DNA from: Escherichia phage ECML-134
Reading direction: 5' to 3' (one strand)
DNA: 64,000 nucleotides
Sequence record: JX128259
The translations under genes were made by a program, and so were the position numbers. Every line of letters begins with the position of its first letter. The first letter of the stretch is position 1. The notes under the pieces are model-generated. The model was not told the origin of the DNA and did not search any database. It saw only the letters and a program-made list of their open reading frames with translations. Positions 39,521 to 39,976 of this stretch are shown here, one piece after another.

Positions 39521-39976
39521 TTATTTTAAATCATCTGCCCAATCGAGTTTAAGAGGCTCTTTATATTCACGATCTAATACGACCGGAATTTGTACATCAC
39601 CGCTAAATGATAAGGGCCCAACATTATAAGACAATGTTATATGCGGTGTGTAATCATCAAAATCATGCGTAGCACCTAGTGCCCGCGCATACATGTGTCG
39701 ACAGCGCAGATATTCAGAATCTAGTACAAGTACAAGAGTCGATCCATCTTGTGTTTTCCATACTTCTAAATGTCCAGAAGAAGCTACTTCAAAACTTCCA
39801 CTCGATGGAACATATGGAACATTTACTCTTGAATAACATATGGTCGAATGAATTTTTTCTCTAGGAACTGGATTAGGAACACGTAAAGAGCGCTGAAGTT
39901 CTTCCAGCGCATCAAGTGTTAATTCTGAAAACTTAGCTGCTACATAAAGACCCGTTGAAAAGTCTTTAAATTCCAT
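39521..39976 (-). CDS. 57B: 2H-phosphoesterase, gene 57B (Acb1 anti-CBASS nuclease in T4)
   Basis: 151 aa; two H-x-T/S motifs (HSTICY, HITLSY) typical of 2H phosphoesterases; immediately upstream of 57A as in T4. Confidence 0.75.

Follow-up and report, generated by a model that had tools for sequence, protein, structure and literature searches.

Does Escherichia phage ECML-134 encode, at the position of T4 gene 57B, the anti-CBASS nuclease Acb1, and does a small ORF in the T4 vs.4 slot supply the second anti-CBASS protein of T4, the cyclic-nucleotide sponge Acb2? We analysed a 64,000-nt stretch of the phage genome (sequence record JX128259; hereafter the window), in which the two candidate genes and their neighbours lie as listed in Table 1. 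Megablast matches to positions 22000-46000 came from Tequatrovirus, a genus of T4-like phages; Escherichia phage vB_EcoM_SCS4 ranked first (100% coverage, 98.5% identity). A blastn map against phage T4T showed that about 34.6 to 99.0 kb of T4 is collinear with the window at 91-99% identity, with interruptions at insertions and deletions of the usual mosaic kind. As in T4, all early and middle genes in the region around both candidates are on the minus strand. Judged from sequence, ECML-134 is almost certainly T4-like (Tequatrovirus), with working copies of both T4 anti-CBASS genes. The presence and integrity of the genes, the identity of their products to the characterized T4 proteins and the retention of every functional residue are established directly.

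Table 1. Positions of the anti-CBASS genes, their neighbours, candidate promoters and inserted ORFs in the window.
Feature	Position	Strand	Description
vs.4 / acb2	27745..28011	minus	88 aa, ATG start; cyclic-dinucleotide sponge, hexamer in its T4 form
187-aa ORF	34862-35425	minus	N-terminus MKTYAEFLTEAA, capsid-targeting-like; in 163 phage records
157-aa ORF	35551-36024	minus	N-terminus MKSYTQFLNEAV, capsid-targeting-like; in 510 phage records
ipI	39157-39447		Other flank of 57B; Pfam IPI_T4, E = 7.5e-54
57B / acb1	39521..39976	minus	151 aa, ATG start, TAA stop; 2H phosphoesterase of the Acb1 family
57A (tail-fibre chaperone)	39976..40218	minus	Directly upstream of 57B; Pfam PF17594 GP57, E = 5e-51
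Gene 1 (dNMP kinase)	40218..40943	minus	Collinear with T4 gene 1; heads the co-directional 1-57A-57B block
TATAAATA late-promoter-like match	40574..40581	minus	Inside gene 1, upstream of 57A-57B; pattern match only
MotA-box-like middle promoter, TGCTTCA-N11-TATAAT	40969..40992	minus	Upstream of gene 1; pattern match only

The protein encoded by 57B is 100% identical to residues 2-152 of T4 gp57B (NP_049750), and the two genes differ by four synonymous and no non-synonymous nucleotide changes. Pfam PF23474 (Acb1) matched along the entire model (positions 1-144 of 144; E = 2.6e-60; 202.7 bits, cut-off 27), and the Acb1 structures PDB 7T26/7T27 were matched at E = 4e-62, the two HxT motifs falling in register. 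The original prediction had pointed to two H-x-T/S motifs of the 2H phosphoesterase type, consistent with T4 Acb1; H-x-[ST] occurs in the protein twice and no more, as H43-S-T45 and as H112-I-T114. By a rough estimate, about 0.4 such motifs would be expected by chance in 151 residues, so two are not improbable; the pair alone is therefore weak evidence, and it is homology that decides.

T4 gene 57B was named Acb1 by Hobbs et al. (2022), who found its product by activity-guided fractionation as a 3'3'-cGAMP-degrading enzyme (PMC9117128). That work assigned catalysis to the tetrad H44, T46, H113 and T115, base stacking to Y12, W74, F107 and W147, and adenine specificity to E141. With an offset of one residue, all nine are present in ECML-134: the tetrad as H43/T45/H112/T114, the stacking aromatics as Y11, W73, F106 and W146, and the adenine-specific glutamate as E140. 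The C-terminal lid is also present and the C-terminus is full length. Alignment thus revealed no loss of the catalytic histidines, and the comparison with T4 supports identification of 57B as Acb1, bearing out the prediction for this gene.

The offset originates at the junction with 57A. The gene order 1-57A-57B-ipI is that of T4, and here the TAA stop of 57A overlaps the ATG of 57B (TAATG), where T4 has ATGATG. The protein lacks the extra N-terminal methionine of T4 because, through a single G-to-A change, 57A ends in TAA where T4 has TGA, and the first of T4's two tandem ATG codons is gone. T2 has an identical junction and an identical 151-aa 57B protein. The TAATG overlap suggests translational coupling of 57B to 57A.

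The second candidate had been placed by synteny alone, and sequence comparison has now confirmed it. The ORF occupies the T4 slot between vs.5 and vs.3/regB; its start follows a GAGG Shine-Dalgarno sequence by about 9 nt and overlaps the vs.5 stop by 8 nt, while its TAA stop overlaps the vs.3 ATG. A longer version starting at a TTG (28047) exists, and it is the 88-aa ATG form that matches both the T4 protein and the crystallized chain. Of the 88 residues, 87 are identical to T4 Vs.4, the sole change being V27I; at the nucleotide level, 11 differences comprise 10 synonymous changes and one non-synonymous A/G transition, which accounts for V27I. A phmmer search of the PDB returned 7UQ2 ('Vs.4') at E = 2e-57, so that significant similarity to Acb2 was found, and Pfam PF24729 (Acb2_Tad1_hairpin) matched over model positions 1-58 of 58 (E = 2.2e-19, 69.8 bits, cut-off 27). 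These matches support identification of the ORF in the vs.4 slot as Vs.4/Acb2.

T4 Vs.4 is a hexamer with three cGAMP molecules bound (Kd about 30 nM) that blocks CapV activation, and the phenotype of vs.4-mutant T4 on CBASS hosts has been published (Jenson et al. 2023, PMC10097602). In that structure the bases are stacked by Y8 and F82, polar contacts come from Y8, H11, K23 and R79, and the hexamer interface is formed by L29, F33, A66, A73 and A77; S74N, T12I and A77I are loss-of-function alleles (PMC10097602). All dinucleotide-pocket residues (Y8, H11, K23, S74, R79 and F82), the five interface residues and the helix cap T12 are kept in ECML-134. If V27I is neutral, the protein would, by extension from T4, bind 3'3'-cGAMP at about 30 nM and block CapV.

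Comparison with the Acb2 of Pseudomonas phage PaMx33 bears on the trinucleotide ligands. Direct phmmer comparison in the PDB gave a marginal match (E about 0.03), which served for residue mapping; given this marginal match, it is the Pfam profile, together with T4 Vs.4 itself, that ties Vs.4 to the Acb2 family. In the alignment, Y8 and K23 correspond to PaMx33 Y11 and K26, which are essential residues of its dinucleotide pocket, and D61 and T68 correspond to R67 and T74. The R67 and T74 pair of the trinucleotide pocket, a feature of some Acb2 members and not of the whole family, is not reproduced in Vs.4, in which T68 is kept and D61 replaces R67. T4 Acb2, with the same D61 and T68, binds cyclic dinucleotides but neither cA3 nor cAAG, and the D61R mutation does not change this (Cao 2023, PMC10312549). 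As it carries the T4 residues at both positions, ECML-134 Vs.4 should not bind cyclic tri-AMP.

Two other readings of these genes were considered. The 2H fold is common to LigT enzymes, and 57B matches PHROG 755, described as 'RNA ligase' (E = 5e-68), a label that its orthologue also bears in many RefSeq records of T4-like phages. The product might then be an RNA ligase, or a LigT-type 2'-5' RNA ligase or cyclic phosphodiesterase acting on RNA ends, with no part in countering CBASS. We hold this to be extremely improbable: the dedicated Pfam Acb1 family takes the protein at the E-value given above, and the T4 protein, identical over 151 residues, is the cGAMP-degrading enzyme recovered by fractionation, whose cleavage activity is abolished in H44A/H113A and whose deletion renders T4 more sensitive to CBASS (PMC9117128). 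The PHROGs description was rejected as a fold-level transfer of annotation, at odds with biochemical work done directly on the T4 protein. The enzyme may also act on RNA, alongside its anti-CBASS activity. More generally, 'RNA ligase' and 'hypothetical protein', the common labels for acb1 and acb2 orthologues, are out of date; a search of NCBIfam matched neither 57B nor Vs.4, the database having no model for either.

If 57B is Acb1, one of the two genes could still have been altered in function, either through a shift in Acb2 ligand affinity or specificity caused by V27I, or through a change in Acb1 dosage following loss of the first 57B start, the junction being TAATG here and ATGATG in T4. 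The allele is indeed uncommon. Among eight sampled homologues none has I27: seven, with identities down to 55%, have V27, and PaMx33 Acb2 is gapped at this position. The I27 protein was likewise absent from about 50,700 phage records, none of which held a match at ≥99% identity. Residue 27 lies one helical turn past the ligand-contacting K23 and two residues before L29 of the interface, and the paper describing Panoptes proposes that pressure from this defence tunes Acb2 in nature, T2 being its example. Nonetheless, few substitutions are as conservative as valine to isoleucine, and the published contact and interface residues of Acb2 do not include position 27 (PMC10097602). We therefore consider functional alteration of either gene very unlikely. 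On comparison of the sequences, I27 is a rare variant, very conservative and at a position that belongs to neither published set, and a functional effect is unlikely; as V27I was seen in neither the sampled homologues nor the phage records, its neutrality is assumed. A specific form of the idea, in which V27I tunes affinity or hexamer stability, for example by weakening capture of the Panoptes decoy 2'3'-c-di-AMP with sequestration of cGAMP kept, strikes us as highly improbable. Were the change adaptive, it would show in nature how a sponge can evade a sponge-sensing defence and still keep its function.

With 57B taken as Acb1 and the vs.4-slot ORF as Acb2, we infer activities, expression timing and host-range consequences from the T4 literature. 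Acb1 would act as a metal-independent 2H phosphoesterase that hydrolyses CBASS cyclic di- and trinucleotides in two steps, provided that they are 3'-5'-linked and contain at least one adenosine (3'3'-cGAMP and cUA as well as cAAA and cAAG, though not cGG). The enzyme would place the adenosine under strain and so prompt attack by the adenosine 2'-OH on the scissile phosphate, over the H-x-T/H-x-T tetrad, giving a linear product that would be unable to activate CBASS effectors. This chemistry and substrate range come from work on the T4 enzyme (PMC9117128). The Acb2 hexamer would hold one cyclic dinucleotide in each of three pockets, every pocket lying between two protomers, with stacking by Y8 and F82 and polar contacts from H11, K23 and R79, so that the signal is withheld and not destroyed. 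Cyclic trinucleotide signals would be left to Acb1, as Acb2 here is not expected to bind cA3. Degradation by the one protein and sequestration by the other would together keep free CBASS signal below the threshold of the effectors.

Both genes are intact, are under purifying selection relative to T4 and sit in compact co-directional gene blocks. T4 57B and vs.4 have been reported as predominantly middle/late genes. Upstream of 57A-57B, the candidate MotA-box-like and TATAAATA sites (Table 1) could drive both genes, and the former is consistent with the middle/late expression reported for T4 57B. The MotA-box pattern is enriched across the window (17 found, 7.4 expected), although the two MotA-box sites upstream of 57B are pattern matches only; the TATAAATA motif is not enriched in the window (15 found, 10.6 expected). 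Scans for sigma-70 promoters and terminators around acb1 and acb2 returned counts at background. Directly downstream of 57B, at 39470-39510 and ahead of ipI, a sigma-70-like match (TTTACA-17-TACTAT, with TG upstream) overlaps a perfect 8-bp inverted repeat, TGAGGTAgtgatactatTACCTCA. This element could close the 57B transcript with a hairpin and at the same time serve ipI as an early promoter.

The comparison with T4 also revealed differences elsewhere in the window, several of which involve genes for internal proteins. There is no counterpart of denV (UV-repair endonuclease V) or ipII at the T4 position (29602-30087); in their place is a 157-aa ORF (29614-30087, minus strand; Pfam DUF7412, E = 6e-96) with the N-terminal capsid-targeting MKTYQEFITEAA of T4 internal proteins. 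T2 has the 157-aa ipIV in this slot, and if denV is nowhere else in the genome, ECML-134 may show T2-like sensitivity to UV. Relative to T4, 1.2 kb is inserted after e.8 and before the tRNA cluster (34862-36024), and this segment holds the two inserted ORFs of Table 1; neither matched Pfam and their relatives are nearly all labelled 'hypothetical'. From their N-termini, their products are candidate injected anti-defence proteins like IPI. A further small internal-protein gene, which T4 lacks, lies between trna.4 and ipI (38838-39089); its product is 77 aa from MKTYQEFIAEAA and occurs in 244 phage records, in some as 'internal virion protein'. N-termini of the capsid-targeting type are found in at least six genes of the window, ipI and ipIII included.

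Other differences concern mobile elements and small genes. The blastn map showed mobB, mobC, the nrdD intron with I-TevII, mobD and segC to be absent relative to T4, the sites of difference for mobile endonucleases being 395-1249, 4082-4107, about 8600, about 9883, 20730-21693 and about 45783. At 395-1249 (minus strand), a 284-aa ORF without a match in a Pfam search is inserted between genes 46 and 46.1. The tRNA cluster at 36419-37821 is T2-like, not T4-like, with nine tRNAs (Arg, Asn, Tyr, Met, Thr, Ser, Gly, Leu and Gln) and no Pro or Ile tRNA called by ARAGORN within it; a gene for a GIY-YIG segB-like endonuclease (36927-37577, minus strand) splits the cluster. An insertion of about 500 bp relative to T4, between nrdC.10 and nrdC.11, carries an 87-aa DUF4031 ORF (19189-19452; Pfam E = 8e-22). 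Two genes upstream of acb2 is vs.6 (28225-28587), whose 120-aa product resembles GrcA, the autonomous glycyl-radical cofactor (RVSGYAV motif; Pfam Gly_radical, E = 2.8e-18). GrcA-like vs.6 is known in T4-like phages and is seldom remarked on.

For host-range and defence screens, ECML-134 should be read like wild-type T4 and not like T2. CBASS systems signalling through 3'3'-cGAMP, cUA, cAAA or cAAG are expected to be blunted, with Acb1 degrading the signals and Acb2 sponging the dinucleotides among them; against CBASS with Acb1-resistant signals (cGG, cUU and 3'2'-cGAMP), binding by Acb2 would be the sole counter. [quoted passage not shown] Since Acb2 is intact here, the phage should be sensitive to Panoptes (OptSE) and restricted on hosts that carry it.

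The original prediction held that both anti-CBASS functions together would matter for interpreting host range. Both genes are confirmed, but the pair is the ordinary T4 condition: the literature states explicitly that T4 has acb1 and acb2 (PMC10312549 among the sources), and their joint presence is normal for T4 and not special to ECML-134. In practice the two genes are T4 alleles, so that the phage adds one more T4-like isolate to a known system, and acb1 and acb2 here bring no new biology. The families themselves are widespread, tblastn on phage records finding relatives of Acb1 in 1,469 and of Vs.4 in 1,230 (each gene counted separately).

Among characterized systems, T4 Acb1 (gp57B) is the closest parallel to 57B, encoded in the same place, downstream of 57A and upstream of ipI, with the same tetrad, stacking and specificity residues. 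The Acb1 of Erwinia phage FBB1 (7T26/7T27) belongs to the same family, provides the fold template and aligns end to end with both HxT motifs conserved, yet is a more distant orthologue with many substitutions, including, at stacking positions, F in place of W73 and Y in place of F106. For the sponge, T4 Vs.4/Acb2 (7UQ2) shares the locus and has identical residues at every cGAMP contact and hexamer interface position, differing by V27I. PaMx33 Acb2 (PDB 8H2J and 8IXZ; Huiting 2023, Cao 2023) belongs to the same Pfam family as Vs.4 and has 24.2% identity to T4 Acb2 (PMC10312549). T2 Vs.4 occupies the same locus and, from residue 9 on, is identical to the ECML-134 protein except for V27; in our alignment its N-terminus, however, has been replaced and lacks Y8, whereas Vs.4 of ECML-134 retains an intact N-terminus of the T4 type. 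T2 is described as carrying a mutation that probably disrupts the Acb2 dinucleotide site (Panoptes paper).
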